Assembly (NCBI GenBank): GCA_964519585.1
Contig: CAZFIO010000001.1
Span: 234-64,233, forward strand
Direction: 5' to 3'
Source: an uncultured Tissierellaceae bacterium
GTDB lineage: Bacteria; Bacillota; Clostridia; Tissierellales; Tissierellaceae
Length of the DNA stretch: 64,000 nt
Shown here: positions 1 to 64,000 of the stretch, piece by piece
Layout of the letters: each line of letters opens with the position of its first letter
Position numbering within the stretch: the stretch's first letter is position 1
Program-made: the position numbers and the translations under genes
The notes under the pieces: generated by a model
What the model saw: only the letters and a program-made list of their open reading frames with translations
What the model was told of the DNA's origin: nothing
Database searches by the model: none

Positions 1-1
1 A

Positions 2-520
2 CTTTTATTCCTAAGTATGGAGGATGGAGATTATGCTCTAGTGGGCCACGGATATGGGAATACTGTATTTACTGATTATGGTAAGGATGTCATGCTTGAT
101 AAGCATATACTTCCTCTTCTAGGCAAGGATAAATACTATGAAGCATTTTTAAAATATCTTGATTTATCTGAAGAATACCTTCTAATGGCAAGTGGTGGTC
201 AACCTTTTGACATAGATACAGATCCAAACTACGGGAAGATAGCTTTACCCATTAAGCTAGGGATTACCTTTCTTATACCTCTACTAATAGCTTTTTTAGT
301 TACAGGTTCATGGAAAAGAAAGATGAAAACTGCTAGATTAGCTACTAGTGCTGGTGATTATATTAGCGCTGAGGGTTTGAAGCTTACAAACCAAGCAGAT
401 CAGTTTTTATACCATACAACGAGCAGTAGGAAGATAGAAAAATCATCCTCTGGTGGTGGCGGAGGAGGAGGAACAAGTGTCAATAGTTCAGGTTATTCAG
501 GTAGGTCAGGAAAGTTTTAA
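2..520 (+). CDS. TPM-domain (YgcG-like) membrane protein, C-terminal part; 5' end cut by the window edge
   Basis: The frame is open from the window edge. The longer mirror copy reads ...DIAIITIDDMGYDEDAFDFASSLIEEYDMGYGSQKSILLLFLSMEDGDYALVGHGYG..., then one TM helix (ITFLIPLLIAFLVTG) and a Gly/Ser-rich tail SSSGGGGGGGTS. This pattern is typical of YgcG/TPM proteins. Call is by pattern memory only. Confidence 0.5.
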   Translation, partial: LLFLSMEDGDYALVGHGYGNTVFTDYGKDVMLDKHILPLLGKDKYYEAFLKYLDLSEEYLLMASGGQPFDIDTDPNYGKIALPIKLGITFLIPLLIAFLVTGSWKRKMKTARLATSAGDYISAEGLKLTNQADQFLYHTTSSRKIEKSSSGGGGGGGTSVNSSGYSGRSGKF

Positions 521-567
521 GAAATCCATCCAAAGATGAAAAATGGAGGGATTGGGGGTGGCATATT

Positions 568-957
568 TTGAAAATTGTTGTAATTAGCATGATGAATAGA
601 TTACTGTCAGGAGCAGTTATAAAATACTTAAGAGAACGTGGAGAATTGATGCCTATCCGGTTGACTGATTGCAATAAAGAAAATGAGCCTTATATAACCT
701 GTAAATCTCACAATGCAGATATACTTTTAATGGAAGTAATGCGGGTGCCACCTTTTACCTTGGAGGAAAGGCTAAGAACAGCAAAACAAATCAGGATAGA
801 GCTTCCAGAATGTAAGCTAGTCTTGCTTTGCGATGAAAATGCTGATCCTGATATGGCAGAAGCTGTAAAAGAAGCAAAAAAACAGGGTTTCATAGATAGT
901 TTTTTCTACAGTTCAGTGAGCGGGGAATACTTATCAGCTATGTTGGATGCACTTTAA
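568..957 (+). CDS. CheY-like receiver-fold protein lacking the phospho-acceptor residues (pseudo-receiver), stand-alone
   Basis: TTG start 7 nt after SD GGGGGTG. Alternating beta/alpha pattern KIVVIS...ADILLMEV...KLVLLCDE...GFIDSFF. The beta1 acidic pair is absent, the beta3 Asp position is Glu, and there is no conserved Lys-Pro after beta5. Confidence 0.45.
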   Translation: MKIVVISMMNRLLSGAVIKYLRERGELMPIRLTDCNKENEPYITCKSHNADILLMEVMRVPPFTLEERLRTAKQIRIELPECKLVLLCDENADPDMAEAVKEAKKQGFIDSFFYSSVSGEYLSAMLDAL

Positions 958-1006
958 TGGCACAGGGGGACGGTTCTATTGGGATATTTTTACAGGCTTT
1001 GACCAA

Positions 1007-1074
1007 GTAGGGGCTAGATTTGCTGGCCCGGAGGCCCAACAGAATGACATAGGCCAAGCAATTGCTTGATTATG
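1007..1074. repeat. Intergenic repeat family, minimal copy A (blocks b1 + b6)
   Basis: GTAGGGGCTAGATTTGCTGGCCC (1007-1029) and CAATTGCTTGATTATG (1059-1074) match blocks at 8840-8862/9124-9140 and 30804-30826/30906-30922. Confidence 0.7.
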
Positions 1075-1384
1075 TATTCCTGTTCTTTCCAAGTGACATT
1101 CATTTTGAACTATGGGGTTTTTACCTTGATGATTATTTAAATGATTTAGAGATTCCCTTTGGGAAAAATTCACCTGACGGAGCAACAACCATTATGTTTG
1201 AAGGAGGATTACCAAACATATGCGGAAGATTCCTTAGGAAATCCTATAAGTATAACTGTTCTTACAGTTCCTGAGGGAAATCATGAAGATACAGTTCCAT
1301 TAGATAACCCTGGCCTAATAGAAATGCTTGAATCAATATTTATAAAATAGCTAGTTTCATGTATAGTTAGGAGGTGACTTTGTC

Positions 1385-2779
1385 ATGAAAAACAAGCTTA
1401 CAGGTATTTTTCTGCTTTTTTTATGTATCTTAGTCTTGGTTGCCTGTGGGAAGAAAGAGAAAGGCCCAGGGGATGGAAACCGGGGAGAAAGGCTTGGTTT
1501 TGGAGAGAATAAAGGTGGAGTAATAGTAAGGGAAGATGCGAAAGGAATAATAAAAATCACTATAGAAGATGGTGAGGCAAATATATCCTTTGACTTAGAT
1601 AAATGTGAGGAATTTTACCAACTTTCTGAATACCCTGAATACTATAATGTAGCTGGTATAAGGGAAGGACCCTTTAAAATCCGGGTTATATCAGGCAGGG
1701 TCAAGGATGCCTTTGTAGGAGAACTACAGATTATGGACTATAGTGAATTAGATTTCACCGTAGCCACTGTAGTACTTACTATGGAAGATGGTAGTGTAGA
1801 ATGGGTTTATGCAGATCCCTTTAGCACTATAGGCTACAGTCACTATGAAGAAGAATATAGCAAAGATGGTAACTTTGAGAGTTATAGGGCATTGGCCTAT
1901 AAGGATAACTTTACTTCCTTTTCTTATGAAAACCATCATGAGGATCAGGATGCTATGGTTCTATATTTAATCAATGATAAGGGAGAAAAGTTTGATTTTT
2001 ACAAGTTATGGCTTGAAACTAAACTTACACAAGGGTCATGGGTCATGAAACTAGAGGATGATTTTGATGAGGATATTTCCCTCTACCTATATTTGAAATT
2101 TGAACCTCATGGGACCTTTACCCTAGATGTAGCAGGAAGCTATATGGACTATGAGATAGCATACTACCATGAAAACTGGGGAGGTTCCTATGAAATAGAT
2201 AGGGGGTCAAGTAAGAACTACTATATGGGAAGTTTTGACTTTGATTTACATCTATTGTGGTGGATAGATGAGGGAGATACTGGTCTCAAGACGGAACTTA
2301 GCGGCAGCTATAGCTTTGAAACAGATTCTACGGGTGATATTTCTTTGGTTTATGAATCAGGAGATAGAATCTACCAAAGAGGGAATATGGAGGTCTTTCC
2401 TTTAGTGAATATTCATGATGACTTGGAGGAATTTAGGGGGCAAACAATTGAAGGTATGGCTATCCTGGAGTTTTCTAGGTACCTAGCTGATGGTATGGAA
2501 TTTATAGTTGTTTGGGTGGAAGCGATTGAGGACCTAGAAGAAGCTAATGACTATAGGATTGAAAATGAGGATGTAGGATATTACCAGTTTACAACAGCTA
2601 CCTATGATCAGTATAGTCTGATGGAATACGACAAAGATGGTTTTGTAGATAGGGTAGACTATTATTTGACTGATTTTATAAATGAAGTTAGAAATTCCTA
2701 TAGGGATGGCAGAGTTCTAGCTAATATTGTAGTAGAAGATGGCCATATAATCTCAGCCCATGAAGTCTATCAACCCTAA
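1385..2779 (+). CDS. Lipoprotein of unknown function (paralog A)
   Basis: SD AGGAGGTG 9 nt upstream. Signal peptide with lipobox LVAC|GKK. Shares blocks with the 3054..4406 product (GPFKIRVISGRVKDAFVGE...VVLTMEDGSVEWVYADPFS vs GPFPIISLAGEVKDMVIGQ...IFILMDDGQVYYVYADIFS; FDFDLHL vs MFFDLHL). No domain recognised. Confidence 0.75.
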   Translation: MKNKLTGIFLLFLCILVLVACGKKEKGPGDGNRGERLGFGENKGGVIVREDAKGIIKITIEDGEANISFDLDKCEEFYQLSEYPEYYNVAGIREGPFKIRVISGRVKDAFVGELQIMDYSELDFTVATVVLTMEDGSVEWVYADPFSTIGYSHYEEEYSKDGNFESYRALAYKDNFTSFSYENHHEDQDAMVLYLINDKGEKFDFYKLWLETKLTQGSWVMKLEDDFDEDISLYLYLKFEPHGTFTLDVAGSYMDYEIAYYHENWGGSYEIDRGSSKNYYMGSFDFDLHLLWWIDEGDTGLKTELSGSYSFETDSTGDISLVYESGDRIYQRGNMEVFPLVNIHDDLEEFRGQTIEGMAILEFSRYLADGMEFIVVWVEAIEDLEEANDYRIENEDVGYYQFTTATYDQYSLMEYDKDGFVDRVDYYLTDFINEVRNSYRDGRVLANIVVEDGHIISAHEVYQP

Positions 2780-2978
2780 GACACAGGGGGACAGTTTGGA
2801 CCCCACTGGTAACTATGATTTTTTAAGTTTGTCATTCTGAACGCTAGTGTCAATCTTGTCTTTCCAATGATTTCAAGATTCGACCCTTCGCTTTGGATGA
2901 CAGAATAAGGAATTGACAGCGGCTTATGACTCTGTCAACTCGTATGCATAAGGATTGTTTTAAAAAAAGTAAAAACAG

Positions 2979-3034
2979 AGTAGAAAGTTTAAGATATAGG
3001 GCATAAGCCTTAGGCCTATTGCTTTCTACTTTTT
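2979..3034 (+). terminator. Terminator-like hairpin plus T-run abutting the SD of the next gene
   Basis: AGTAGAAAG (2979-2987) pairs with CTTTCTACT (3022-3030), followed by TTTT. The loop contains an inner hairpin. The structure ends 7 nt before AGGAGG of the 3054 gene. Confidence 0.5.
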
Positions 3035-3053
3035 CCTTAGAGGAGGTGGCAAC

Positions 3054-4406
3054 TTGTACAGAAAAATAATTATATTGCTTATCAGCCTATCATTAATTTT
3101 CCCCCTAACTGCTTGTAAAAGTTCAAAAGTAAATAGTCCCAATAACAATGGGAAAGATAATCCAGGAGAAACAAAAGACCCTATAAAGGATGAAGTCCTA
3201 GTCTATAAGGATGATACGAATCTTATGGAGATTCATGTAAGCAATAAGAGGGATGTTGAAGTTTACTTTAATCTTGAAAGATGGGAGGGGGACTTTACTC
3301 TTAGTCAAATAGGCGAGGGTGGAGACTTGGTAAATTATTTTAACAAGGAAAACTGGAGAGAGTTATTAGATATAGAAGATAGGTCATCCATGGGTGACAA
3401 TTATTATGGGCCCTTTCCTATAATCAGCCTAGCTGGAGAAGTAAAAGATATGGTTATAGGGCAAATTGCAGAGTTTGATTATGCAAATGGCTTGGAACAA
3501 ATGATGCCTACAATTTTTATTCTTATGGATGATGGCCAGGTTTACTATGTATATGCAGATATATTTTCAATAGAGAGAGGATTTACAGAATTTCACGCCT
3601 CGGGACCTTTACCTTGGGTTGAGAATATAGAATCTCTGGCCTATGAGAGTGATGGTGAGGGGATGGATGGCACTATGACAGCTTATGCAGTAGATAAGCA
3701 AGGTGCAAAATACGATTTAAGGATACCGGGTAAATTTCAAAATCTTTATATGGGTATGGATTGGGTATCCAACGAGAATGCAGAAGATCCAAATTATGAG
3801 TTTTCTAAGCCTGAATACTGTGCTGTTCTGAATTTTTTAGTGGATGGGACTGTTTCTTTGAAAAAAGGCTGGACCAATGAAGAAGCAATAAGATATAAGG
3901 GGACCTATAGGGTAAGCATGGGTGAAGATGATAATGGACCAGGTATTATGTTTTTTGACCTACACCTTGACTCAACAACTCCTTACGCGGAAGAAACTAT
4001 AAATGGATCCTACTTTGCAGACCTACATTTCGGCATCTCTTTGGAACTTTTCCCAGGAGATGGAGACCTACTCTTTGTTGAAGGAAGGAATGAATATGAG
4101 CCCTTTAAGTTTATATGGGGATATAGTCCTTTTGATAGGTCTGTTAATAGTGTAAGGATTAATGACTATGGGGATTATTTGATAAACAACTCCAGCCATA
4201 TAAGGGAGATGGTAACCAAACATAAAATGTCTCTGCTTGAAACAGGAGAAACCAGGGAAATTGGTGATGAGCTTTGTACAGATATATGGTTAGGCACCAA
4301 CCACAAAGACAACTTTGTAAAAGAAATTCTATATACTATTTCAGACACTGGAAACATCTATGAGTATGACCCTATAGGGGATGGATGGTTTCAAGTATGG
4401 AATTAA
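3054..4406 (+). CDS. Lipoprotein of unknown function (paralog B)
   Basis: TTG start after SD GGAGG. Signal peptide with lipobox LTAC|KSS. Paralogous to the 1385..2779 product. Confidence 0.75.
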   Translation: MYRKIIILLISLSLIFPLTACKSSKVNSPNNNGKDNPGETKDPIKDEVLVYKDDTNLMEIHVSNKRDVEVYFNLERWEGDFTLSQIGEGGDLVNYFNKENWRELLDIEDRSSMGDNYYGPFPIISLAGEVKDMVIGQIAEFDYANGLEQMMPTIFILMDDGQVYYVYADIFSIERGFTEFHASGPLPWVENIESLAYESDGEGMDGTMTAYAVDKQGAKYDLRIPGKFQNLYMGMDWVSNENAEDPNYEFSKPEYCAVLNFLVDGTVSLKKGWTNEEAIRYKGTYRVSMGEDDNGPGIMFFDLHLDSTTPYAEETINGSYFADLHFGISLELFPGDGDLLFVEGRNEYEPFKFIWGYSPFDRSVNSVRINDYGDYLINNSSHIREMVTKHKMSLLETGETREIGDELCTDIWLGTNHKDNFVKEILYTISDTGNIYEYDPIGDGWFQVWN

Positions 4407-4407
4407 G

Positions 4408-4435
4408 GCCAAGGAAAACCCTTGGCTTTTGTTTT
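4408..4435. terminator. Rho-independent terminator between convergent genes
   Basis: GCCAAGG-aaaac-CCTTGGC followed by TTTTGTTTT. It lies between the stop codons of the lipoprotein B gene and pepF. Confidence 0.75.
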
Positions 4436-6203
4436 ACCTATCCGCCAATTCAATAAATCTATCTATATCCTTCTCAATCAATTTCAAAGAGCTTCTAAAA
4501 AAGTCTGGCTTATGAATATCTATATTCATCATATCAGCGACATCTTTTATATTATTCTTGCCTGTAGCATTTAGTAGTTCATCATATTCCTTTACAAAAG
4601 ATTCACCTGTACTTAGGTATTCCGCATAAAGCCCCTTAGCAAACAAAAGTCCAAAGGCATAGGGGAAGTTGTAGAAGTTAAGTCCTGCTGAGTAGTAGTG
4701 GGGTTTATTCAACCACATATAAGGATGAAGGACACTATGATCTAAACCATTGCCATAGGACTTCTTTTGGGCATCCATCATTATATCCTTTAATTCCTTG
4801 ACTGGCAAAGAGGACTCCTTTCTCCTGTTAAACAATTCTGATTCAAAAAGGAATCTGCTATATATATCCACAATCACCTGGGCTGCATCTGAGATAGAGG
4901 ATTCAAGTATGCCTAGGGCTTCTTCATCACTAGCATCCTTTAGGGCAGCATTTGTTACTATGGTTTCACAAAATATAGAAGCAGTTTCAGCTATAGGCAT
5001 GGGATATCTAGAGTTTAAGATGGATTCATTTCTTAGATTTAGCCCATGGTAGCCATGGCCTAGTTCATGGGCCAGGGTAATCATATTTGAAAAACTTCCA
5101 TCAAAGTTGGCCAAAATCCTACTTTCACCTATAGGGTGCAAGTTGGAGCAGAAGGCCCCTCCCCTTTTACCGTCTCTGGGTTCCACATCTAACCAGTTAT
5201 TATCATAGGCCTCCTGCACAAAATCTGCCAATCTATCACTGAAAGTCCTGAAGTTTTTAACTATATAGTTTATGGCCTCTTCGTAGGTAAATCTTCTATC
5301 AACTTGTCCAAGGGGGGCAAATAAATCATAAAATGGAAGACCATCCTGGTGGCCCAAGATCTCTGCCTTTTTCTTAAAATACCTATGGAAGGCTGGTAGG
5401 AATTCCTCCATAGCTATAAGCATAGAGTCTAAGCTTTCCTTATTCATTCTTGATTTAAAAAGAGTTTCAGACAGTGGAGACTCAAAACCCCTCAACTCCG
5501 AGGTGGTTATTACTTCTCCCTTTATTCCATTTAAAGCTGCAGCTGAGGATTCTTCAACTTTTTCATAGGCCTTCAACTCTGCTTCATAGGCAGTTTTCCT
5601 TATCTTTTCATCCTTATCATAGGCTAGGTTTCTTACCATTGCTAGTGGTAGTTGTTTATCTTCACCATCTAAGTCTATATCTACCATCAAGGTTGAAGTT
5701 ATTTTATCCTGAAGATTTGACCAGGCTGTTGAGCCTGTATTCTTCATTTTGGATATAATGATTTCTTCTTTCTCGCTGAGCAAATATTTTGTAGATTCTT
5801 TGATTTGTGCTAAATAAAATTTATGCTTATTCAATAAGTCAGATTTTCCCACCAGATCTTCTAAATCTGGCAAATCCTTTAAAAAGTTCTTAAATTGAAC
5901 TTCTGGCTTAGTCAACTCTGTTCCCTTTAAACTAAGCTTATCCAAATATTCTAGGGCTTTTTCATCCCTGGCATTTGTAGAACTTGATAGGTTTGCATAA
6001 GCCCCTAATTTACTATATAGGTTGGAAATTTTAACTGAAAAATCAATATAGTATTCCAACTTTTCAATAGGATTATCTAAGGAGACAAGACTATCCCCAG
6101 CCCACTTAGCAAAATCCCCTATAAGCTTATCAAGTTTGTCAAAGTCTGTTAAAAATTCTTGAGAATCAAAAGAAGGGTACAATTCATCTAAAGACCACCT
6201 CAT
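4434..6203 (-). CDS. pepF: Oligoendopeptidase F (M3B metallopeptidase)
   Basis: HELGHGYH zinc motif and the length and sequence pattern of the PepF family. Start moved to ATG 6203 (MRWSLDELYPSF), which has SD GGAGG. The 30-codon MRQGPS... extension in the track is a translated REP hairpin. Confidence 0.9.
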   Translation of the reverse strand: MRWSLDELYPSFDSQEFLTDFDKLDKLIGDFAKWAGDSLVSLDNPIEKLEYYIDFSVKISNLYSKLGAYANLSSSTNARDEKALEYLDKLSLKGTELTKPEVQFKNFLKDLPDLEDLVGKSDLLNKHKFYLAQIKESTKYLLSEKEEIIISKMKNTGSTAWSNLQDKITSTLMVDIDLDGEDKQLPLAMVRNLAYDKDEKIRKTAYEAELKAYEKVEESSAAALNGIKGEVITTSELRGFESPLSETLFKSRMNKESLDSMLIAMEEFLPAFHRYFKKKAEILGHQDGLPFYDLFAPLGQVDRRFTYEEAINYIVKNFRTFSDRLADFVQEAYDNNWLDVEPRDGKRGGAFCSNLHPIGESRILANFDGSFSNMITLAHELGHGYHGLNLRNESILNSRYPMPIAETASIFCETIVTNAALKDASDEEALGILESSISDAAQVIVDIYSRFLFESELFNRRKESSLPVKELKDIMMDAQKKSYGNGLDHSVLHPYMWLNKPHYYSAGLNFYNFPYAFGLLFAKGLYAEYLSTGESFVKEYDELLNATGKNNIKDVADMMNIDIHKPDFFRSSLKLIEKDIDRFIELADR

Positions 6204-6262
6204 AATAAAACACCTCCATATATTTACAATAAGATTATACCACAATAGAAGGATTGCTAAAC

Positions 6263-6298
6263 AATAGTGCGCTAGGGACGGTCCTTGGCGCATTTTTG
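6263..6298. repeat. REP-like GC-rich hairpin (copy 1)
   Basis: AATAGTGCGCTAGGGACGGTCCTTGGCGCATTTTTG. Same family as the copies flanking the RAYT gene. Confidence 0.8.
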
Positions 6299-6377
6299 TA
6301 TATATTTTTTATATTTTTCTTGCAATATTGGTATATTAAGTATATACTTATTTAGTTATATATAAGGAGGAGAAAGA

Positions 6378-8018
6378 TTGAGTAAATTAGCATTTAATGA
6401 AATAAAATTATCAAATGGAATACAGCGGGGTATTTCAGAAATGGGTTTTGAAGAAATGTCACCAATTCAGGAACAGGCAATTCCTGTAATATTGGCAGGA
6501 AGGGATGTGATAGGTCAGGCCCAGACTGGGACAGGGAAAACCGCAGCTTTTGGAATTCCTATTTTAGAAACTTGTGATCCAAGCGACAAGAGATTGCAAG
6601 CACTGGTACTATGTCCCACAAGGGAGTTGTCAATTCAAGTAGCGGAAGAAATAAGGAATATCGGAAAGTTTATGAGCGGAATTAAGGTTCTACCTATATA
6701 TGGGGGTCAACCTATTGATAGGCAGATTAGGTCCTTGAAGGGTGGAGTTCAGATAGTTGTAGGCACACCAGGCCGGGTTATGGACCATATGAGAAGGAGG
6801 ACCTTAAAATTAGACAAGGTAAAAATGATGGTTCTTGATGAGGCCGACGAAATGTTTGATATGGGTTTTAGGGATGATATAGGCTTTGTTATGGATGAGT
6901 TGCCAGAGGAAAGACAAACTGTATTTTTTTCAGCTACCATGCCTAAGGAAATAATCAATTTTGCATCCAAATATCAAAACAATCCTGAATTAGTTAAGGT
7001 TGTTCATAAGGAATTAACATTACCTAAAATTGAGCAGTACTACTTCGAGCTAAAGGAACATATGAAGACTGAAATTCTAAGTCGTCTTATAGATATCAAT
7101 AATCCAAAACTTAGCATAGTTTTTTGTAATACAAAAAAGCGTGTAGATGAGTTGACAGAAAAGCTTACAGGAAGGGGTTATCTGGCAGATGGCCTCCATG
7201 GTGACTTAAAACAAAGCCAAAGAGATACTGTAATGAATAAGTTTAGAAATGGTACTATTGATATTTTAATTGCTACAGATGTAGCTGCTAGAGGCCTAGA
7301 TGTGGATGATATAGACCTGGTGGTAAACTATGATATACCTAGGGATGAAGAATATTATGTTCATAGGATTGGTAGGACAGCCAGAGCTGGCAGGGAGGGT
7401 GTAGCCTATAGCTTTGTAGTAGGTAGGGATAAAAACCTACTAGCAAATATTCAAAGATACGCCAATACAAAAATAAAGAGAAGAGACATACCTACTCTTA
7501 AAGATATGGAGCAAAACTACAGGACCAGTGCCCTAGATAAGATTAAGGATGAAATTACTAAGGGAGAACTAGGCAAGTATAGTAAAATAGTGGATGCTCT
7601 AATAGAAGAAGGATTTACTTCCTTTGATATTGCAGCTGCCCTGCTTAAGTTCTATATGGATGATAGTAAATATGAAAAACACGAAAAGTTAGAACAAGTA
7701 GACTTTGGAGGGAAATTCAGGTCTAGTGGGGGTAAAAATGAAAGGCTTTCAAAGGACACTACAAGATTGTTTATCAATATAGGAAGCAGAAAGGGAGCCA
7801 GCCAAAGACATATACTAGCAGCCCTAGTCCAAGATGCAAATTTACAGAAGAACCATGTAGGGGCTATAGATATATATGATAAGTTTTCCTTTGTGGAAAT
7901 TCCAGCAAATCTTGCCAATGATGTGGTAAGAAACCTAAATAATAAGAGGATCAGGGGAAGCATGGTACAGGTAGAGATTGCCACCCCTAAAAGAAAATCA
8001 GGTCCAAAAAGAAAATAG
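6378..8018 (+). CDS. DEAD-box ATP-dependent RNA helicase with a C-terminal DbpA-type RNA-binding domain
   Basis: TTG start 7 nt after AAGGAGG. Motifs: Q (FEEMSPIQEQAIP), AQTGTGKT, PTRELS, DEAD, SAT, HRIGRTARAG. C-terminal TRLFINIGSRKGASQRHILAALV...VEIPANLANDV. Confidence 0.92.
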   Translation: MSKLAFNEIKLSNGIQRGISEMGFEEMSPIQEQAIPVILAGRDVIGQAQTGTGKTAAFGIPILETCDPSDKRLQALVLCPTRELSIQVAEEIRNIGKFMSGIKVLPIYGGQPIDRQIRSLKGGVQIVVGTPGRVMDHMRRRTLKLDKVKMMVLDEADEMFDMGFRDDIGFVMDELPEERQTVFFSATMPKEIINFASKYQNNPELVKVVHKELTLPKIEQYYFELKEHMKTEILSRLIDINNPKLSIVFCNTKKRVDELTEKLTGRGYLADGLHGDLKQSQRDTVMNKFRNGTIDILIATDVAARGLDVDDIDLVVNYDIPRDEEYYVHRIGRTARAGREGVAYSFVVGRDKNLLANIQRYANTKIKRRDIPTLKDMEQNYRTSALDKIKDEITKGELGKYSKIVDALIEEGFTSFDIAAALLKFYMDDSKYEKHEKLEQVDFGGKFRSSGGKNERLSKDTTRLFINIGSRKGASQRHILAALVQDANLQKNHVGAIDIYDKFSFVEIPANLANDVVRNLNNKRIRGSMVQVEIATPKRKSGPKRK

Positions 8019-55850: not shown

Positions 55851-55858
55851 GTCTGACT
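55833..55858. terminator. Hairpin terminator (mirror)
   Basis: Mirror of 8017..8042. Confidence 0.7.
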
Positions 55859-57497
55859 ATTTTCTTTTTGGACCTGATTTTCTTTTAGGGGTGGCAATCT
55901 CTACCTGTACCATGCTTCCCCTGATCCTCTTATTATTTAGGTTTCTTACCACATCATTGGCAAGATTTGCTGGAATTTCCACAAAGGAAAACTTATCATA
56001 TATATCTATAGCCCCTACATGGTTCTTCTGTAAATTTGCATCTTGGACTAGGGCTGCTAGTATATGTCTTTGGCTGGCTCCCTTTCTGCTTCCTATATTG
56101 ATAAACAATCTTGTAGTGTCCTTTGAAAGCCTTTCATTTTTACCCCCACTAGACCTGAATTTCCCTCCAAAGTCTACTTGTTCTAACTTTTCGTGTTTTT
56201 CATATTTACTATCATCCATATAGAACTTAAGCAGGGCAGCTGCAATATCAAAGGAAGTAAATCCTTCTTCTATTAGAGCATCCACTATTTTACTATACTT
56301 GCCTAGTTCTCCCTTAGTAATTTCATCCTTAATCTTATCTAGGGCACTGGTCCTGTAGTTTTGCTCCATATCTTTAAGAGTAGGTATGTCTCTTCTCTTT
56401 ATTTTTGTATTGGCGTATCTTTGAATATTTGCTAGTAGGTTTTTATCCCTACCTACTACAAAGCTATAGGCTACACCCTCCCTGCCAGCTCTGGCTGTCC
56501 TACCAATCCTATGAACATAATATTCTTCATCCCTAGGTATATCATAGTTTACCACCAGGTCTATATCATCCACATCTAGGCCTCTAGCAGCTACATCTGT
56601 AGCAATTAAAATATCAATAGTACCATTTCTAAACTTATTCATTACAGTATCTCTTTGGCTTTGTTTTAAGTCACCATGGAGGCCATCTGCCAGATAACCC
56701 CTTCCTGTAAGCTTTTCTGTCAACTCATCTACACGCTTTTTTGTATTACAAAAAACTATGCTAAGTTTTGGATTATTGATATCTATAAGACGACTTAGAA
56801 TTTCAGTCTTCATATGTTCCTTTAGCTCGAAGTAGTACTGCTCAATTTTAGGTAATGTTAATTCCTTATGAACAACCTTAACTAATTCAGGATTGTTTTG
56901 ATATTTGGATGCAAAATTGATTATTTCCTTAGGCATGGTAGCTGAAAAAAATACAGTTTGTCTTTCCTCTGGCAACTCATCCATAACAAAGCCTATATCA
57001 TCCCTAAAACCCATATCAAACATTTCGTCGGCCTCATCAAGAACCATCATTTTTACCTTGTCTAATTTTAAGGTCCTCCTTCTCATATGGTCCATAACCC
57101 GGCCTGGTGTGCCTACAACTATCTGAACTCCACCCTTCAAGGACCTAATCTGCCTATCAATAGGTTGACCCCCATATATAGGTAGAACCTTAATTCCGCT
57201 CATAAACTTTCCGATATTCCTTATTTCTTCCGCTACTTGAATTGACAACTCCCTTGTGGGACATAGTACCAGTGCTTGCAATCTCTTGTCGCTTGGATCA
57301 CAAGTTTCTAAAATAGGAATTCCAAAAGCTGCGGTTTTCCCTGTCCCAGTCTGGGCCTGACCTATCACATCCCTTCCTGCCAATATTACAGGAATTGCCT
57401 GTTCCTGAATTGGTGACATTTCTTCAAAACCCATTTCTGAAATACCCCGCTGTATTCCATTTGATAATTTTATTTCATTAAATGCTAATTTACTCAA
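55857..57497 (-). CDS. DEAD-box RNA helicase (mirror copy)
   Basis: Mirror of 6378..8018. Confidence 0.92.
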   Translation of the reverse strand: MSKLAFNEIKLSNGIQRGISEMGFEEMSPIQEQAIPVILAGRDVIGQAQTGTGKTAAFGIPILETCDPSDKRLQALVLCPTRELSIQVAEEIRNIGKFMSGIKVLPIYGGQPIDRQIRSLKGGVQIVVGTPGRVMDHMRRRTLKLDKVKMMVLDEADEMFDMGFRDDIGFVMDELPEERQTVFFSATMPKEIINFASKYQNNPELVKVVHKELTLPKIEQYYFELKEHMKTEILSRLIDINNPKLSIVFCNTKKRVDELTEKLTGRGYLADGLHGDLKQSQRDTVMNKFRNGTIDILIATDVAARGLDVDDIDLVVNYDIPRDEEYYVHRIGRTARAGREGVAYSFVVGRDKNLLANIQRYANTKIKRRDIPTLKDMEQNYRTSALDKIKDEITKGELGKYSKIVDALIEEGFTSFDIAAALLKFYMDDSKYEKHEKLEQVDFGGKFRSSGGKNERLSKDTTRLFINIGSRKGASQRHILAALVQDANLQKNHVGAIDIYDKFSFVEIPANLANDVVRNLNNKRIRGSMVQVEIATPKRKSGPKRK

Positions 57498-57576
57498 TCT
57501 TTCTCCTCCTTATATATAACTAAATAAGTATATACTTAATATACCAATATTGCAAGAAAAATATAAAAAATATATA

Positions 57577-57612
57577 CAAAAATGCGCCAAGGACCGTCCC
57601 TAGCGCACTATT
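57577..57612. repeat. REP-like hairpin copy 1 (mirror)
   Basis: Mirror of 6263..6298. Confidence 0.8.
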
Positions 57613-57671
57613 GTTTAGCAATCCTTCTATTGTGGTATAATCTTATTGTAAATATATGGAGGTGTTTTATT

Positions 57672-59441
57672 ATGAGGTGGTCTTTAGATGAATTGTACCC
57701 TTCTTTTGATTCTCAAGAATTTTTAACAGACTTTGACAAACTTGATAAGCTTATAGGGGATTTTGCTAAGTGGGCTGGGGATAGTCTTGTCTCCTTAGAT
57801 AATCCTATTGAAAAGTTGGAATACTATATTGATTTTTCAGTTAAAATTTCCAACCTATATAGTAAATTAGGGGCTTATGCAAACCTATCAAGTTCTACAA
57901 ATGCCAGGGATGAAAAAGCCCTAGAATATTTGGATAAGCTTAGTTTAAAGGGAACAGAGTTGACTAAGCCAGAAGTTCAATTTAAGAACTTTTTAAAGGA
58001 TTTGCCAGATTTAGAAGATCTGGTGGGAAAATCTGACTTATTGAATAAGCATAAATTTTATTTAGCACAAATCAAAGAATCTACAAAATATTTGCTCAGC
58101 GAGAAAGAAGAAATCATTATATCCAAAATGAAGAATACAGGCTCAACAGCCTGGTCAAATCTTCAGGATAAAATAACTTCAACCTTGATGGTAGATATAG
58201 ACTTAGATGGTGAAGATAAACAACTACCACTAGCAATGGTAAGAAACCTAGCCTATGATAAGGATGAAAAGATAAGGAAAACTGCCTATGAAGCAGAGTT
58301 GAAGGCCTATGAAAAAGTTGAAGAATCCTCAGCTGCAGCTTTAAATGGAATAAAGGGAGAAGTAATAACCACCTCGGAGTTGAGGGGTTTTGAGTCTCCA
58401 CTGTCTGAAACTCTTTTTAAATCAAGAATGAATAAGGAAAGCTTAGACTCTATGCTTATAGCTATGGAGGAATTCCTACCAGCCTTCCATAGGTATTTTA
58501 AGAAAAAGGCAGAGATCTTGGGCCACCAGGATGGTCTTCCATTTTATGATTTATTTGCCCCCCTTGGACAAGTTGATAGAAGATTTACCTACGAAGAGGC
58601 CATAAACTATATAGTTAAAAACTTCAGGACTTTCAGTGATAGATTGGCAGATTTTGTGCAGGAGGCCTATGATAATAACTGGTTAGATGTGGAACCCAGA
58701 GACGGTAAAAGGGGAGGGGCCTTCTGCTCCAACTTGCACCCTATAGGTGAAAGTAGGATTTTGGCCAACTTTGATGGAAGTTTTTCAAATATGATTACCC
58801 TGGCCCATGAACTAGGCCATGGCTACCATGGGCTAAATCTAAGAAATGAATCCATCTTAAACTCTAGATATCCCATGCCTATAGCTGAAACTGCTTCTAT
58901 ATTTTGTGAAACCATAGTAACAAATGCTGCCCTAAAGGATGCTAGTGATGAAGAAGCCCTAGGCATACTTGAATCCTCTATCTCAGATGCAGCCCAGGTG
59001 ATTGTGGATATATATAGCAGATTCCTTTTTGAATCAGAATTGTTTAACAGGAGAAAGGAGTCCTCTTTGCCAGTCAAGGAATTAAAGGATATAATGATGG
59101 ATGCCCAAAAGAAGTCCTATGGCAATGGTTTAGATCATAGTGTCCTTCATCCTTATATGTGGTTGAATAAACCCCACTACTACTCAGCAGGACTTAACTT
59201 CTACAACTTCCCCTATGCCTTTGGACTTTTGTTTGCTAAGGGGCTTTATGCGGAATACCTAAGTACAGGTGAATCTTTTGTAAAGGAATATGATGAACTA
59301 CTAAATGCTACAGGCAAGAATAATATAAAAGATGTCGCTGATATGATGAATATAGATATTCATAAGCCAGACTTTTTTAGAAGCTCTTTGAAATTGATTG
59401 AGAAGGATATAGATAGATTTATTGAATTGGCGGATAGGTAA
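57672..59441 (+). CDS. pepF: Oligoendopeptidase F (mirror copy)
   Basis: Mirror of 4434..6203. Confidence 0.9.
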   Translation: MRWSLDELYPSFDSQEFLTDFDKLDKLIGDFAKWAGDSLVSLDNPIEKLEYYIDFSVKISNLYSKLGAYANLSSSTNARDEKALEYLDKLSLKGTELTKPEVQFKNFLKDLPDLEDLVGKSDLLNKHKFYLAQIKESTKYLLSEKEEIIISKMKNTGSTAWSNLQDKITSTLMVDIDLDGEDKQLPLAMVRNLAYDKDEKIRKTAYEAELKAYEKVEESSAAALNGIKGEVITTSELRGFESPLSETLFKSRMNKESLDSMLIAMEEFLPAFHRYFKKKAEILGHQDGLPFYDLFAPLGQVDRRFTYEEAINYIVKNFRTFSDRLADFVQEAYDNNWLDVEPRDGKRGGAFCSNLHPIGESRILANFDGSFSNMITLAHELGHGYHGLNLRNESILNSRYPMPIAETASIFCETIVTNAALKDASDEEALGILESSISDAAQVIVDIYSRFLFESELFNRRKESSLPVKELKDIMMDAQKKSYGNGLDHSVLHPYMWLNKPHYYSAGLNFYNFPYAFGLLFAKGLYAEYLSTGESFVKEYDELLNATGKNNIKDVADMMNIDIHKPDFFRSSLKLIEKDIDRFIELADR

Positions 59442-59467
59442 AACAAAAGCCAAGGGTTTTCCTTGGC
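59440..59467. terminator. Terminator between convergent genes (mirror)
   Basis: Mirror of 4408..4435. Confidence 0.75.
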
Positions 59468-59468
59468 C

Positions 59469-60821
59469 TTAATTCCATACTTGAAACCATCCATCCCCTA
59501 TAGGGTCATACTCATAGATGTTTCCAGTGTCTGAAATAGTATATAGAATTTCTTTTACAAAGTTGTCTTTGTGGTTGGTGCCTAACCATATATCTGTACA
59601 AAGCTCATCACCAATTTCCCTGGTTTCTCCTGTTTCAAGCAGAGACATTTTATGTTTGGTTACCATCTCCCTTATATGGCTGGAGTTGTTTATCAAATAA
59701 TCCCCATAGTCATTAATCCTTACACTATTAACAGACCTATCAAAAGGACTATATCCCCATATAAACTTAAAGGGCTCATATTCATTCCTTCCTTCAACAA
59801 AGAGTAGGTCTCCATCTCCTGGGAAAAGTTCCAAAGAGATGCCGAAATGTAGGTCTGCAAAGTAGGATCCATTTATAGTTTCTTCCGCGTAAGGAGTTGT
59901 TGAGTCAAGGTGTAGGTCAAAAAACATAATACCTGGTCCATTATCATCTTCACCCATGCTTACCCTATAGGTCCCCTTATATCTTATTGCTTCTTCATTG
60001 GTCCAGCCTTTTTTCAAAGAAACAGTCCCATCCACTAAAAAATTCAGAACAGCACAGTATTCAGGCTTAGAAAACTCATAATTTGGATCTTCTGCATTCT
60101 CGTTGGATACCCAATCCATACCCATATAAAGATTTTGAAATTTACCCGGTATCCTTAAATCGTATTTTGCACCTTGCTTATCTACTGCATAAGCTGTCAT
60201 AGTGCCATCCATCCCCTCACCATCACTCTCATAGGCCAGAGATTCTATATTCTCAACCCAAGGTAAAGGTCCCGAGGCGTGAAATTCTGTAAATCCTCTC
60301 TCTATTGAAAATATATCTGCATATACATAGTAAACCTGGCCATCATCCATAAGAATAAAAATTGTAGGCATCATTTGTTCCAAGCCATTTGCATAATCAA
60401 ACTCTGCAATTTGCCCTATAACCATATCTTTTACTTCTCCAGCTAGGCTGATTATAGGAAAGGGCCCATAATAATTGTCACCCATGGATGACCTATCTTC
60501 TATATCTAATAACTCTCTCCAGTTTTCCTTGTTAAAATAATTTACCAAGTCTCCACCCTCGCCTATTTGACTAAGAGTAAAGTCCCCCTCCCATCTTTCA
60601 AGATTAAAGTAAACTTCAACATCCCTCTTATTGCTTACATGAATCTCCATAAGATTCGTATCATCCTTATAGACTAGGACTTCATCCTTTATAGGGTCTT
60701 TTGTTTCTCCTGGATTATCTTTCCCATTGTTATTGGGACTATTTACTTTTGAACTTTTACAAGCAGTTAGGGGGAAAATTAATGATAGGCTGATAAGCAA
60801 TATAATTATTTTTCTGTACAA
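59469..60821 (-). CDS. Lipoprotein of unknown function, paralog B (mirror copy)
   Basis: Mirror of 3054..4406. Confidence 0.75.
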   Translation of the reverse strand: MYRKIIILLISLSLIFPLTACKSSKVNSPNNNGKDNPGETKDPIKDEVLVYKDDTNLMEIHVSNKRDVEVYFNLERWEGDFTLSQIGEGGDLVNYFNKENWRELLDIEDRSSMGDNYYGPFPIISLAGEVKDMVIGQIAEFDYANGLEQMMPTIFILMDDGQVYYVYADIFSIERGFTEFHASGPLPWVENIESLAYESDGEGMDGTMTAYAVDKQGAKYDLRIPGKFQNLYMGMDWVSNENAEDPNYEFSKPEYCAVLNFLVDGTVSLKKGWTNEEAIRYKGTYRVSMGEDDNGPGIMFFDLHLDSTTPYAEETINGSYFADLHFGISLELFPGDGDLLFVEGRNEYEPFKFIWGYSPFDRSVNSVRINDYGDYLINNSSHIREMVTKHKMSLLETGETREIGDELCTDIWLGTNHKDNFVKEILYTISDTGNIYEYDPIGDGWFQVWN

Positions 60822-60840
60822 GTTGCCACCTCCTCTAAGG

Positions 60841-60896
60841 AAAAAGTAGAAAGCAATAGGCCTAAGGCTTATGCCCTATATCTTAAACTTTCTACT
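60841..60896 (-). terminator. Terminator-like hairpin (mirror)
   Basis: Mirror of 2979..3034. Confidence 0.5.
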
Positions 60897-61095
60897 CTGT
60901 TTTTACTTTTTTTAAAACAATCCTTATGCATACGAGTTGACAGAGTCATAAGCCGCTGTCAATTCCTTATTCTGTCATCCAAAGCGAAGGGTCGAATCTT
61001 GAAATCATTGGAAAGACAAGATTGACACTAGCGTTCAGAATGACAAACTTAAAAAATCATAGTTACCAGTGGGGTCCAAACTGTCCCCCTGTGTC

Positions 61096-62490
61096 TTAGG
61101 GTTGATAGACTTCATGGGCTGAGATTATATGGCCATCTTCTACTACAATATTAGCTAGAACTCTGCCATCCCTATAGGAATTTCTAACTTCATTTATAAA
61201 ATCAGTCAAATAATAGTCTACCCTATCTACAAAACCATCTTTGTCGTATTCCATCAGACTATACTGATCATAGGTAGCTGTTGTAAACTGGTAATATCCT
61301 ACATCCTCATTTTCAATCCTATAGTCATTAGCTTCTTCTAGGTCCTCAATCGCTTCCACCCAAACAACTATAAATTCCATACCATCAGCTAGGTACCTAG
61401 AAAACTCCAGGATAGCCATACCTTCAATTGTTTGCCCCCTAAATTCCTCCAAGTCATCATGAATATTCACTAAAGGAAAGACCTCCATATTCCCTCTTTG
61501 GTAGATTCTATCTCCTGATTCATAAACCAAAGAAATATCACCCGTAGAATCTGTTTCAAAGCTATAGCTGCCGCTAAGTTCCGTCTTGAGACCAGTATCT
61601 CCCTCATCTATCCACCACAATAGATGTAAATCAAAGTCAAAACTTCCCATATAGTAGTTCTTACTTGACCCCCTATCTATTTCATAGGAACCTCCCCAGT
61701 TTTCATGGTAGTATGCTATCTCATAGTCCATATAGCTTCCTGCTACATCTAGGGTAAAGGTCCCATGAGGTTCAAATTTCAAATATAGGTAGAGGGAAAT
61801 ATCCTCATCAAAATCATCCTCTAGTTTCATGACCCATGACCCTTGTGTAAGTTTAGTTTCAAGCCATAACTTGTAAAAATCAAACTTTTCTCCCTTATCA
61901 TTGATTAAATATAGAACCATAGCATCCTGATCCTCATGATGGTTTTCATAAGAAAAGGAAGTAAAGTTATCCTTATAGGCCAATGCCCTATAACTCTCAA
62001 AGTTACCATCTTTGCTATATTCTTCTTCATAGTGACTGTAGCCTATAGTGCTAAAGGGATCTGCATAAACCCATTCTACACTACCATCTTCCATAGTAAG
62101 TACTACAGTGGCTACGGTGAAATCTAATTCACTATAGTCCATAATCTGTAGTTCTCCTACAAAGGCATCCTTGACCCTGCCTGATATAACCCGGATTTTA
62201 AAGGGTCCTTCCCTTATACCAGCTACATTATAGTATTCAGGGTATTCAGAAAGTTGGTAAAATTCCTCACATTTATCTAAGTCAAAGGATATATTTGCCT
62301 CACCATCTTCTATAGTGATTTTTATTATTCCTTTCGCATCTTCCCTTACTATTACTCCACCTTTATTCTCTCCAAAACCAAGCCTTTCTCCCCGGTTTCC
62401 ATCCCCTGGGCCTTTCTCTTTCTTCCCACAGGCAACCAAGACTAAGATACATAAAAAAAGCAGAAAAATACCTGTAAGCTTGTTTTTCAT
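61096..62490 (-). CDS. Lipoprotein of unknown function, paralog A (mirror copy)
   Basis: Mirror of 1385..2779. Confidence 0.75.
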   Translation of the reverse strand: MKNKLTGIFLLFLCILVLVACGKKEKGPGDGNRGERLGFGENKGGVIVREDAKGIIKITIEDGEANISFDLDKCEEFYQLSEYPEYYNVAGIREGPFKIRVISGRVKDAFVGELQIMDYSELDFTVATVVLTMEDGSVEWVYADPFSTIGYSHYEEEYSKDGNFESYRALAYKDNFTSFSYENHHEDQDAMVLYLINDKGEKFDFYKLWLETKLTQGSWVMKLEDDFDEDISLYLYLKFEPHGTFTLDVAGSYMDYEIAYYHENWGGSYEIDRGSSKNYYMGSFDFDLHLLWWIDEGDTGLKTELSGSYSFETDSTGDISLVYESGDRIYQRGNMEVFPLVNIHDDLEEFRGQTIEGMAILEFSRYLADGMEFIVVWVEAIEDLEEANDYRIENEDVGYYQFTTATYDQYSLMEYDKDGFVDRVDYYLTDFINEVRNSYRDGRVLANIVVEDGHIISAHEVYQP

Positions 62491-62800
62491 GACAAAGTCA
62501 CCTCCTAACTATACATGAAACTAGCTATTTTATAAATATTGATTCAAGCATTTCTATTAGGCCAGGGTTATCTAATGGAACTGTATCTTCATGATTTCCC
62601 TCAGGAACTGTAAGAACAGTTATACTTATAGGATTTCCTAAGGAATCTTCCGCATATGTTTGGTAATCCTCCTTCAAACATAATGGTTGTTGCTCCGTCA
62701 GGTGAATTTTTCCCAAAGGGAATCTCTAAATCATTTAAATAATCATCAAGGTAAAAACCCCATAGTTCAAAATGAATGTCACTTGGAAAGAACAGGAATA

Positions 62801-62868
62801 CATAATCAAGCAATTGCTTGGCCTATGTCATTCTGTTGGGCCTCCGGGCCAGCAAATCTAGCCCCTAC
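62801..62868. repeat. Intergenic repeat family copy A (mirror)
   Basis: Mirror of 1007..1074. Confidence 0.7.
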
Positions 62869-62917
62869 TTGGTCAAAGCCTGTAAAAATATCCCAATAGA
62901 ACCGTCCCCCTGTGCCA

Positions 62918-63307
62918 TTAAAGTGCATCCAACATAGCTGATAAGTATTCCCCGCTCACTGAACTGTAGAAAAAACTATCTATGAAACCCTGTTTTTTTG
63001 CTTCTTTTACAGCTTCTGCCATATCAGGATCAGCATTTTCATCGCAAAGCAAGACTAGCTTACATTCTGGAAGCTCTATCCTGATTTGTTTTGCTGTTCT
63101 TAGCCTTTCCTCCAAGGTAAAAGGTGGCACCCGCATTACTTCCATTAAAAGTATATCTGCATTGTGAGATTTACAGGTTATATAAGGCTCATTTTCTTTA
63201 TTGCAATCAGTCAACCGGATAGGCATCAATTCTCCACGTTCTCTTAAGTATTTTATAACTGCTCCTGACAGTAATCTATTCATCATGCTAATTACAACAA
63301 TTTTCAA
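62918..63307 (-). CDS. Pseudo-receiver (CheY-fold) protein (mirror copy)
   Basis: Mirror of 568..957. Confidence 0.45.
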   Translation of the reverse strand: MKIVVISMMNRLLSGAVIKYLRERGELMPIRLTDCNKENEPYITCKSHNADILLMEVMRVPPFTLEERLRTAKQIRIELPECKLVLLCDENADPDMAEAVKEAKKQGFIDSFFYSSVSGEYLSAMLDAL

Positions 63308-63354
63308 AATATGCCACCCCCAATCCCTCCATTTTTCATCTTTGGATGGATTTC

Positions 63355-64000
63355 TTAAAACTTTCCTGACCTACCTGAATAACCTGAACTATTGACACTT
63401 GTTCCTCCTCCTCCGCCACCACCAGAGGATGATTTTTCTATCTTCCTACTGCTCGTTGTATGGTATAAAAACTGATCTGCTTGGTTTGTAAGCTTCAAAC
63501 CCTCAGCGCTAATATAATCACCAGCACTAGTAGCTAATCTAGCAGTTTTCATCTTTCTTTTCCATGAACCTGTAACTAAAAAAGCTATTAGTAGAGGTAT
63601 AAGAAAGGTAATCCCTAGCTTAATGGGTAAAGCTATCTTCCCGTAGTTTGGATCTGTATCTATGTCAAAAGGTTGACCACCACTTGCCATTAGAAGGTAT
63701 TCTTCAGATAAATCAAGATATTTTAAAAATGCTTCATAGTATTTATCCTTGCCTAGAAGAGGAAGTATATGCTTATCAAGCATGACATCCTTACCATAAT
63801 CAGTAAATACAGTATTCCCATATCCGTGGCCCACTAGAGCATAATCTCCATCCTCCATACTTAGGAATAAAAGTAAAATACTTTTCTGGCTACCATAACC
63901 CATATCGTATTCTTCTATTAAACTTGAGGCAAAGTCAAAAGCATCTTCATCATAGCCCATATCATCTATAGTAATTATGGCTATATCACAGTAGTGATCC
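63355..64000 (-). CDS. TPM-domain (YgcG-like) membrane protein; 5' end runs off the window
   Basis: Mirror of 2..520 plus 126 nt more. The frame stays open from the first ATG (63960) up to the window edge (...DHYCDIAIITIDDMGYDED...), so the true start lies outside the window. Confidence 0.5.
   Translation of the reverse strand, partial: DHYCDIAIITIDDMGYDEDAFDFASSLIEEYDMGYGSQKSILLLFLSMEDGDYALVGHGYGNTVFTDYGKDVMLDKHILPLLGKDKYYEAFLKYLDLSEEYLLMASGGQPFDIDTDPNYGKIALPIKLGITFLIPLLIAFLVTGSWKRKMKTARLATSAGDYISAEGLKLTNQADQFLYHTTSSRKIEKSSSGGGGGGGTSVNSSGYSGRSGKF

Follow-up and report, generated by a model that had tools for sequence, protein, structure and literature searches.

The window (the whole stretch of 64,000 nucleotides that was analysed) reads as its own reverse complement over nearly its entire length. 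This raises the question of whether a bacterial genome really carries a giant palindrome at this locus or whether one ordinary segment was written out twice during assembly.

Symmetry and extent of the palindrome

The original prediction described a perfect, spacer-less palindrome of 31.9 kb, and comparison of all 31,937 base pairs bore this out: pairing each base x from 1 to 31937 with base 63875-x gave complementary letters throughout (0 mismatches), and the arms met without indels or spacer. This comparison answers the self reverse-complement check proposed at the same time and leaves the arms without divergence. The centre lies at 31937|31938 and reads ...AGAAAGATATCAAAAATCTA|TAGATTTTTGATATCTTTCT... 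(Table 1). Base counts of the window were likewise symmetric (A 20381 / T 20380; C 11626 / G 11613), GC skew was mirrored about the centre, where cumulative skew was maximal, and the REP copies reported earlier were present. Chance cannot be the source of a 31.9-kb symmetry. Centre aside, the 31.9-kb arm contained a single perfect palindrome that has no spacer and arms of 8 nt or more (24 nt, centred after 29722). The left arm displayed 30 ORFs of at least 90 aa, 24 of them on the + strand.

Table 1. Position and strand of the features discussed in the text
Feature	Position	Strand	Remarks
Left arm	1..31937	+	Single copy of ~32 kb of chromosomal DNA; 31938-63874 is its exact reverse complement
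Right arm, redundant copy	31938..63874	-	Left-arm sequence again as reverse complement
Extra 126 nt of the right arm	63875..64000	-	Arm sequence running on naturally, within a TPM_phosphatase-domain gene; no distinct outer flank
24-nt perfect palindrome AAAAAAGCCCCTAGGGGCTTTTTT, bidirectional terminator	29711..29734	.	Between formamidase and GNAT genes
Innermost gene, orphan ABC-transporter ATPase (P0001)	30924..31709	-	261 aa from ATG; start 228 nt from the centre
Consensus sigma-70-type promoter	31844..31873	+	TTGACA-18-TATAAT, 12/12; aims into the centre
15-codon ORF (MKIKCTEKEKDIKNL*)	31894..31941	+	Downstream of the promoter; TAG stop begins directly after the centre
Fold-back core, 20 nt, CAAAAATCTA|TAGATTTTTG	31928..31947	.	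Fold-back point 31937|31938
Mirror copy of the promoter	32031-32002	-	By palindrome symmetry
Mirror copy of the ABC-transporter ATPase gene	32166-32951	+	By palindrome symmetry

At its outer end the palindrome did not meet any different sequence. The 126-nt overhang of the right arm, also noticed originally, was present and proved to be normal genomic continuation, the reverse complement of positions 63875-64000 matching the heads of independent contigs L113, L114 and L116. Since the real genome carries on past the outer end of the arm (gene map of L113), the palindrome has no outer boundary. The largest contig on record with the protein of the innermost gene measures 64,340 bp and is the sole large one; as the palindrome spans at least 63,874 bp, it makes up essentially the entire contig.

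Maintained long inverted repeats, such as the terminal inverted repeats of Streptomyces or phytoplasmas and plastid IRs, resemble the window in being inverted duplications of tens of kilobases. Yet, theirs are split by unique sequence and have defined boundaries, whereas this one is spacer-less, boundary-less and contig-filling. Neither the spacer nor the distinct unique flanks of a stable chromosomal long inverted repeat were present. A biological duplication with zero divergence would have to be extremely recent. Such an event might consist of a break beside a short palindrome, capped by snap-back and replicated into a giant, isochromosome-like palindrome in part of the population. The identity of the arms is compatible with a very recent event of this sort, and the centre does sit on a natural palindrome able to form a stable hairpin. 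Long perfect palindromes are, however, prone to cleavage by SbcCD/Mre11-Rad50-type nucleases and to loss, and one that lacks a spacer and exceeds 64 kb would be expected to share this fate. Likewise, the missing outer boundary of the arms speaks against an in vivo duplication, an acentric fragment lacking an origin would not be kept, and a short-read assembler is unable to tell such a molecule from an artefact. On the cleavage and loss of long palindromes, see also PMC12624138. On balance, we consider a duplication in the living cell scarcely credible.

Gene content of the arm and features of its centre

The gene content had been described as housekeeping rather than plasmid or phage, and Pfam searches and gene calls agreed. 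The genes on the arm are ordinary chromosomal ones from an uncultured, Tissierellales/Natronincolaceae-like representative of the Bacillota. Among them are genes for a DEAD-box helicase, PlsY, a MurI-type racemase, CitX/CitG, an FMN-dependent dehydrogenase-type enzyme, CorA, a T-box-controlled amino-acid ABC transporter and a PLP-dependent enzyme. A plasmid or phage origin of the segment was dropped as megablast gave no plasmid or phage match for the arm. Searches against PHROGs recorded no PHROG or protelomerase match in the 32-kb arm, and Pfam and PHROGs together gave neither a telomere resolvase (ResT/TelA/TelN family) nor a phage-like gene in these 32 kb. The 24-nt terminator indicates that natural short palindromes do occur in this DNA; used as a control, it was run straight through by contigs L001 and L118 (see below).

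The fold-back core was the only stretch of the junction also present in another assembly (L001), and the central 72 nt folded into a perfect DNA hairpin (-35.4 kcal/mol). A check for adapter remnants at this point, suggested originally, turned up none: eight adapter sequences, aligned locally to the centre, scored at best within the range of random arm positions. This absence fits a junction formed on a natural palindrome. The 12/12 promoter is located 64 nt from the centre and aimed at it, without anything to transcribe, and its direction would imply transcribed sequence beyond the centre in the real genome. In addition, the first ORF upstream of the ABC gene homologue was divergently transcribed in 10 of the 13 relatives examined. 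Taken together, these two observations suggest that real sequence should follow the centre. An rRNA or ncRNA gene after the promoter was considered as an explanation for the contig breaks; an Rfam search with the stub transcript from promoter to centre gave a chance-level match only (E = 1.1).

A quite different reading makes the centre a real, covalently closed hairpin telomere: a linear chromosome or chromid would terminate here, its two strands continuous with each other at 31937|31938, and reads and assemblers would have passed round the tip. The genome would still hold one duplex copy of each gene, the doubling would be unreal and the centre would be a true biological terminus. Replicated hairpin telomere junctions (Borrelia ResT, Agrobacterium TelA, phage N15 TelN, 'Ca. 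Phytoplasma mali') are also spacer-less perfect inverted repeats with an AT-rich dyad, and reading round a hairpin end yields this exact topology. The junction without spacer or adapter is in keeping with such an end, as is the AT-rich tip, which resembles Borrelia and phytoplasma hairpins (PMC2459194). Moreover, hairpin-ended linear chromosomes exist in 'Ca. Phytoplasma mali', assigned to the Firmicutes by its authors (PMC2459194). Gene orientation and GC skew run centre-ward, as for replication towards a telomere, but one half of every circular chromosome shows this too. In contrast to the known telomeres, the present case displays no resolvase or phage-like gene in its terminal 32 kb and directs a 12/12 promoter straight at the putative tip, with nothing to express there. 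To our knowledge, and following a literature search, no linear chromosome is known in Clostridia or Tissierellia. Likewise, we know of no hairpin-ended linear chromosome in a walled Bacillota lineage, so that a Tissierellales/Natronincolaceae-like case, if true, would be the first and biologically important. The terminal sequence at the putative tip reads ...GATATCAAAAATCTA.

Contigs of the same strain and the search for the neighbouring sequence

Two further contigs of the same strain, both issued from short-read de Bruijn assemblers (MEGAHIT and Logan, respectively), carried the sequence once and were 100% identical to the window. L001 (ENA ERZ27247346, with a MEGAHIT k141 name, 4,845 bp) ends exactly 10 nt past the centre, these 10 nt including the same TAG stop of the 15-codon ORF, and L002 (Logan SRR8449813, 1,572 bp) ends 6 nt short of it. 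The three assemblies fold or stop within 16 nt of one point and none goes on into other sequence. Exact-protein look-ups with the three innermost genes matched only L001, L002 and L118, a Logan contig of 926 bp; a literature search on the accessions of both samples gave no match.

The end of L001 carries an assembly signature. In a de Bruijn simulation on the real sequence, a path meeting its own reverse complement ended at +10 nt with k=21, which is the smallest default k of MEGAHIT, and L001 and L002 give the junction no support past about (k-1)/2 nt. In a toy model with k=21, the end of L001 fitted a natural palindrome whose arm is either exactly 10 nt long or unlimited; for L002, k=31 called for a branch 36 nt away from the centre. 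The two contig ends could not be fitted with one length of the natural palindrome, and none was adopted. Under this model, the two ends together would require some further factor, for instance low coverage, a suppression of reads across the centre or a repeat that joins in 36 nt away from it.

A shared stopping point without continuation elsewhere is what a hairpin telomere would produce, and if coverage thinned out towards a physical end, the stop of L002 6 nt before the tip and the mere 10 nt that L001 gains round it would be accounted for. Yet, the same stop is expected from an artefact as well, given a coverage gap or a repeat. A real physical feature at the centre would make three assemblies fold or stop there, and a chance coverage gap is unlikely if the three rest on independent read sets.

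The true neighbour of the arm in related genomes, another check proposed originally, was looked for and not recovered. Neither relatives, exact-DNA scans nor protein look-ups provided a contig with different sequence past the centre. In the best GTDB-representative relatives, the ABC ATPase was only ~72% identical and synteny was absent on either flank; in the closest metagenomic relatives (L119 and L120) identity reached 76-78% and the upstream genes were unrelated. The 36-mer adjoining the centre had 0 matches among JGI metagenome contigs, a 30-mer had 0 in IMG/VR, and a search with the N-terminal 90 aa gave no near-identical fragments. A scan with the 20-nt core palindrome recorded 30 matches, all in unrelated organisms and with differing flanks; most belonged to a repeat family in contigs of ~20-26% GC from the Ga0214921 metagenome.

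In relatives, the terminal gene had its homologues inside large contigs, of up to 2.28 Mb for a Natronincolaceae homologue (71% identical), which distinguishes this locus from known telomeres and argues against a chromosome end here. Furthermore, whole-contig palindrome artefacts are, by a rough estimate, far commoner than sampled telomere contigs. A hairpin telomere is accordingly regarded as very improbable.

Origin of the fold-back and its consequences

The window is very probably a 'hairpin contig', i.e. an assembly artefact, the organism carrying one copy of a ~32-kb chromosomal segment; the 31.9-kb palindrome is almost certainly not a real genomic feature. A fold-back artefact doubling every gene had already been proposed, and the proposal is supported by the whole-contig scale, the lack of boundary or divergence, the chromosomal genes, the single-copy contigs ending at the centre and published precedent. 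In SPAdes assemblies of M. bovis, 81 whole-contig palindromes were judged assembly errors (PMC9455707), as were palindromic contigs in SAG assemblies (bioRxiv 10.1101/2023.06.06.543983). These de Bruijn palindromes share with the window genes doubled as reverse complement, identical DNA and ordinary chromosomal content. Yet, those reports leave the junction undescribed. In the window it coincides with a natural palindrome no shorter than 20 nt, and this is also where two more assemblies of the strain break off.

Such a contig could have formed as follows. The genome would contain a short natural perfect palindrome, at least CAAAAATCTA|TAGATTTTTG, ~228 nt upstream of the orphan ABC-ATPase gene, where the true continuation may have been left unassembled owing to a coverage gap or to repeated or variable sequence beyond. 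The strand would then have been linked to its own reverse complement, either by k-mers crossing the palindrome centre or by a few in vitro fold-back chimeric molecules, which arise when a single-stranded end folds onto itself at the palindrome and undergoes extension. Taking this link, the assembler would have walked the same 32 kb back on the other strand and emitted every gene twice, the arms showing zero differences because both would stem from the same reads. In vitro fold-back chimeras (MDA/phi29, end-repair snap-back) display a head-to-head inverted junction with no adapter between the arms, and their nucleation is expected on self-complementary sequence. Single molecules are, however, read- or fragment-sized, and the 31.9-kb arms found here must be assembler-extended from normal reads. 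The exact symmetry, the missing outer boundary, the whole-contig scale, the single-copy contigs with their ends at the centre and the (k-1)/2 signature are direct observations, whereas we infer how the link arose (molecularly or in the algorithm), which sequencing platform was used and why the neighbour is missing.

The same artefact might also have arisen through long reads or amplification, a single fold-back read having tied the region to its own opposite strand in a string-graph assembly. Such a read could come from an adapter-less SMRTbell molecule, a nanopore template-complement read or an MDA inverted chimera. A 31.9-kb arm and perfect identity after polishing would fit this route, and MDA palindromic reads are well documented (PMC13265396, PMC9984789). 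On the other hand, the centre lacks an adapter remnant, MDA junctions usually have a spacer unless formed on a natural palindrome, and the other contigs of the strain come from short-read de Bruijn assemblers, one of them with the k=21 fold-back overhang. This variant, whose probability was counted within that of the hairpin contig as a whole, is possible but rather doubtful. Of the original explanation, the fold-back itself stood and its long-read causes (a missed SMRTbell adapter, nanopore template-complement reads) lost their precedence: it is no less likely that the de Bruijn graph folded back on a short natural palindrome, perhaps with a few chimeric reads as the seed.

As an artefact, the palindrome matters for data hygiene only and serves as a quality-control warning. 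At least one public record lists about 30 genes in duplicate (the protein is recorded at NCBI and JGI), which inflates total contig size and duplicated-marker counts and creates a false GC-skew apex resembling a replication terminus. Screens for complete linear elements would score the palindrome as a giant inverted terminal repeat. A simple filter for contigs equal to their own reverse complement would remove such records.

Symmetry and extent of the palindrome

Comparison of the window with its own reverse complement gave 0 mismatches and 0 indels: base x was the complement of base 63875-x for all x from 1 to 31937, and no spacer separated the arms at the centre (between 31937 and 31938), which reads ...GATATCAAAAATCTA on its left and TAGATTTTTGATATC... 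on its right. The perfect, spacer-less palindrome of the original prediction was thus recovered by direct test, as was the 126-nt surplus of the right arm (63875-64000). Base composition and GC skew were likewise mirrored between the arms, with the cumulative skew maximum at the centre. Although genuine in the record, the symmetry almost certainly does not exist in the organism itself.

The innermost gene codes for an orphan ABC-transporter ATPase (P0001, 261 aa), entries for which exist in NCBI, JGI, Logan and ENA. The longest contig with this protein, presumably the source of the window, measured 64,340 bp and the palindrome spans at least 63,874 bp, so that it makes up essentially the whole contig. 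An outer boundary with distinct flanks is required of any genuine inverted repeat in a chromosome. Here, the genome simply runs on beyond the outer end of the arm: L113, a Logan contig from another sample (99.8% identical), displayed the complete TPM_phosphatase gene together with three further genes upstream of it, and the surplus of the right arm agrees with this genomic continuation. The palindrome is therefore devoid of such a boundary, which, together with the instability expected of such a structure, makes a giant palindrome existing in vivo in a subpopulation very improbable.

We consider it highly probable that the window is a hairpin contig, i.e. an assembly artefact in which one chromosomal segment was written forwards and then as its reverse complement. 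The fold-back artefact initially proposed is supported by the whole-contig scale, the lack of outer boundary, the chromosomal genes and the single-copy contigs ending at the centre (see below). The true continuation would have been left unassembled at a natural short palindrome, owing to a coverage gap or to a repeated or variable neighbour. The strand would then have been linked to its own reverse complement by k-mers across the palindrome centre or, alternatively, by a small number of chimeric molecules formed by snap-back in vitro, and the assembler would have retraced the same 32 kb in reverse. Zero divergence is automatic in such a contig since its two arms derive from one and the same set of reads. 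Palindromes of just this type, filling a whole contig, have been published: 81 from SPAdes assemblies of M. bovis were thrown out as assembly errors (PMC9455707), and others from single-cell assemblies were judged likewise (bioRxiv 10.1101/2023.06.06.543983). A long-read or MDA origin would be a variant of this explanation, and palindromic reads from MDA are well documented (PMC13265396, PMC9984789). As regards the missed adapter that had been envisaged, comparison with eight adapter sequences revealed no sequencing-adapter remnant at the centre.

Other assemblies ending at the centre

Two contigs from other assemblies of the same strain, both 100% identical to the window, contained the region once and ended at the centre: L001 (ENA ERZ27247346, 4,845 bp, with the MEGAHIT-style name k141_396491) and L002 (Logan SRR8449813, 1,572 bp). 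L001 starts at 31928, 10 nt past the centre, and these 10 nt obey the palindrome, while L002 starts at 31944, 6 nt short of it. A minimal canonical-k-mer unitig walker was run on the real sequence. When the palindrome was unlimited, or a hairpin was followed round its tip, the simulated unitig ended (k-1)/2 nt past the centre, which amounts to +10, +15 and +70 for k=21, 31 and 141, respectively. The +10 of L001 is thus the k=21 fold-back signature, 21 being the smallest default k of MEGAHIT. The same +10 at k=21 resulted from a natural palindrome whose arms measure exactly 10 nt. To account for the end of L002, either a gap in coverage or the junction of a second sequence 36 nt away from the centre would be needed. 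As no single natural arm length produced both ends in the simulation, none is claimed. A single local gap in coverage would account for all three assemblies, the window included, if they had reads in common.

Matching contig ends also occurred elsewhere, since L113 (SRR29457781) and L114 (SRR8449813), from different samples, both end at 2856. This position lies in an intergenic stretch holding 'GTCATTCTGAACGC...', which we suspect to be a dispersed repeat of this genome breaking k=31 assemblies. Several unrelated sequencing runs also contained the same species in low amounts (SRR29457781, SRR29457766, SRR29457759, SRR31053346 and SRR13522557; contigs L113 and L115-L118, 99.1-99.9% nucleotide identity); reads from which the true neighbour of the centre could be established therefore exist.

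Surroundings of the centre

The DNA around the centre is AT-rich and intergenic, the centre itself being situated 228 nt upstream of the start codon of the ABC ATPase. A promoter matching the consensus at 12/12 positions (TTGACA-18-TATAAT) and preceded by AT-rich DNA is aimed at the centre, 64 nt away. Downstream of it there is only a 15-codon ORF (MKIKCTEKEKDIKNL), the stop of which starts directly past the centre, and then the palindrome. An Rfam search of this promoter-to-centre stub gave no credible match; it could represent the beginning of a leader peptide, an sRNA or an rRNA/ncRNA operon, with its body beyond the fold-back point. Among relatives, the first ORF of 100 aa or more upstream of the homologous ABC gene was divergently transcribed from it in 10 of the 13 cases examined, the identity of this divergent gene varying among genomes. 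These observations point to real sequence beyond the centre and argue against a physical DNA end there.

Such an end, a covalently closed hairpin telomere with reads passing round its tip, would also cause all assemblers to stop or fold at a single nucleotide position with neither spacer nor adapter, and a hairpin-ended linear chromosome is described for 'Ca. Phytoplasma mali' (PMC2459194). Yet, no resolvase was found within 32 kb, the promoter is directed into the putative tip, the homologues of relatives are interior to large contigs (up to 2.28 Mb) and artefactual hairpin contigs are, by our rough estimate, much commoner. To our knowledge, hairpin-ended chromosomes have no precedent in Clostridia. 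A telomere is thus improbable; were it true, the genes would still be present once.

Genes and repeats of the arm

In the arm, 30 ORFs reach 90 aa or more; in the left arm, 24 of these are on the + strand. Besides the tabulated features, Pfam matches (names in brackets are our own reading) comprised M3 oligoendopeptidase, DEAD-box RNA helicase with DbpA domain, PlsY, Crp/Fnr-type regulator, hemerythrin-domain proteins, flavodiiron-type protein, CitX and CitG, Asp/Glu racemase (MurI-like), Na+/H+ antiporter, FMN-dependent dehydrogenase-type enzyme, PadR regulator adjoining a DUF2812 protein, rhodanese, CorA, FAD/Rieske oxidoreductase, a PLP-dependent enzyme also downstream of the T-box leader, formamidase and GNAT acetyltransferase. 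No tRNA gene was found in the arm, megablast gave no match to plasmids or phages, and PHROG searches of its unannotated ORFs were negative. The housekeeping rather than plasmid or phage content announced beforehand thus held: the arm is an ordinary piece of the chromosome of an undescribed lineage of Bacillota, the closest genomes (ca. 70-72% protein identity) being uncultured Clostridiaceae, Alkaliphilus, Tissierella and Natronincolaceae-type MAGs.

Features of the left arm
Feature	Position	Strand	Remarks
Predicted lipoprotein	1385-2779	+	464 aa
Intergenic stretch	~2820-2940		between two genes; putative dispersed repeat
Predicted lipoprotein	3054-4406	+	450 aa
REP-like repeats, 37 nt	6262-6298, 21059-21095, 21112-21148, 22001-22037, 23010-23046		mirror copies in right arm
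REP-like repeat, weaker copy	15432-15468		mirror copy in right arm
Inverted pair, 48 nt	9146-9193, 30575-30622		85% complementary
IS200-like Y1 transposase	21228-22043	+	PF01797, 271 aa
T-box leader	24791-25025	+	104.7 bits, exceeds Rfam gathering score
Amino-acid ABC transporter operon	25251-27563		behind T-box leader
Palindrome, 24 nt	29711-29734		centred after 29722
Orphan ABC ATPase	30924-31709	-	innermost gene; mirror copy 32166-32951 (+)
Promoter	31844-31873	+	directed at centre
Possible leader or ncRNA start	31844-31941	+

Short natural perfect palindromes occur in this genome. The 24-nt AAAAAAGCCCCTAGGGGCTTTTTT, between the convergent formamidase and GNAT genes, is the sole one in the arm with arms of at least 8 nt, the centre aside. 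It was crossed without break by L001 and by L118, a contig of the same species, and looks like a bidirectional intrinsic terminator. The REP copies previously noted do form a family of REP-like palindromic repeats (CAAAAATGCGCCAGGGACCGTCCCCAGCGCATTTTTG). They flank the transposase gene on both sides, an arrangement that resembles a REP/RAYT-type pairing, here in a genome of the class Clostridia, and they yield spurious ORF starts ('MRQGPS...').

The two adjacent lipoproteins, both of which have a signal peptide and a Cys lipobox, had no Pfam or PHROG match and are distant paralogues (26% identity, E = 2e-15). The 48-nt pair lies upstream of two unrelated genes, coding for the Crp/Fnr-type regulator and a 130-aa zinc-ribbon-like protein, and holds tandem 'TTGACTAT' motifs (CAACTGTTTGACTATCGCTTGACTATTGTT); the pair may constitute an operator or promoter module common to both genes. 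Finally, the 20-mer CAAAAATCTATAGATTTTTG, the core palindrome of the centre, is also the core of a dispersed repeat in contigs of ca. 20-26% GC from JGI metagenome Ga0214921 (L085, L088, L090, L091, L093, L094, L096, L097, L100-L102, L105, L108-L110 and L112). Some of these contigs carry two copies, with conserved flanks TATAAAATCAAAAATCTATAGATTTTTGATT[C/A/T]TATAA...GACTGCGATACGAAATTCAAAATTC, and the repeat is unrelated to the window.
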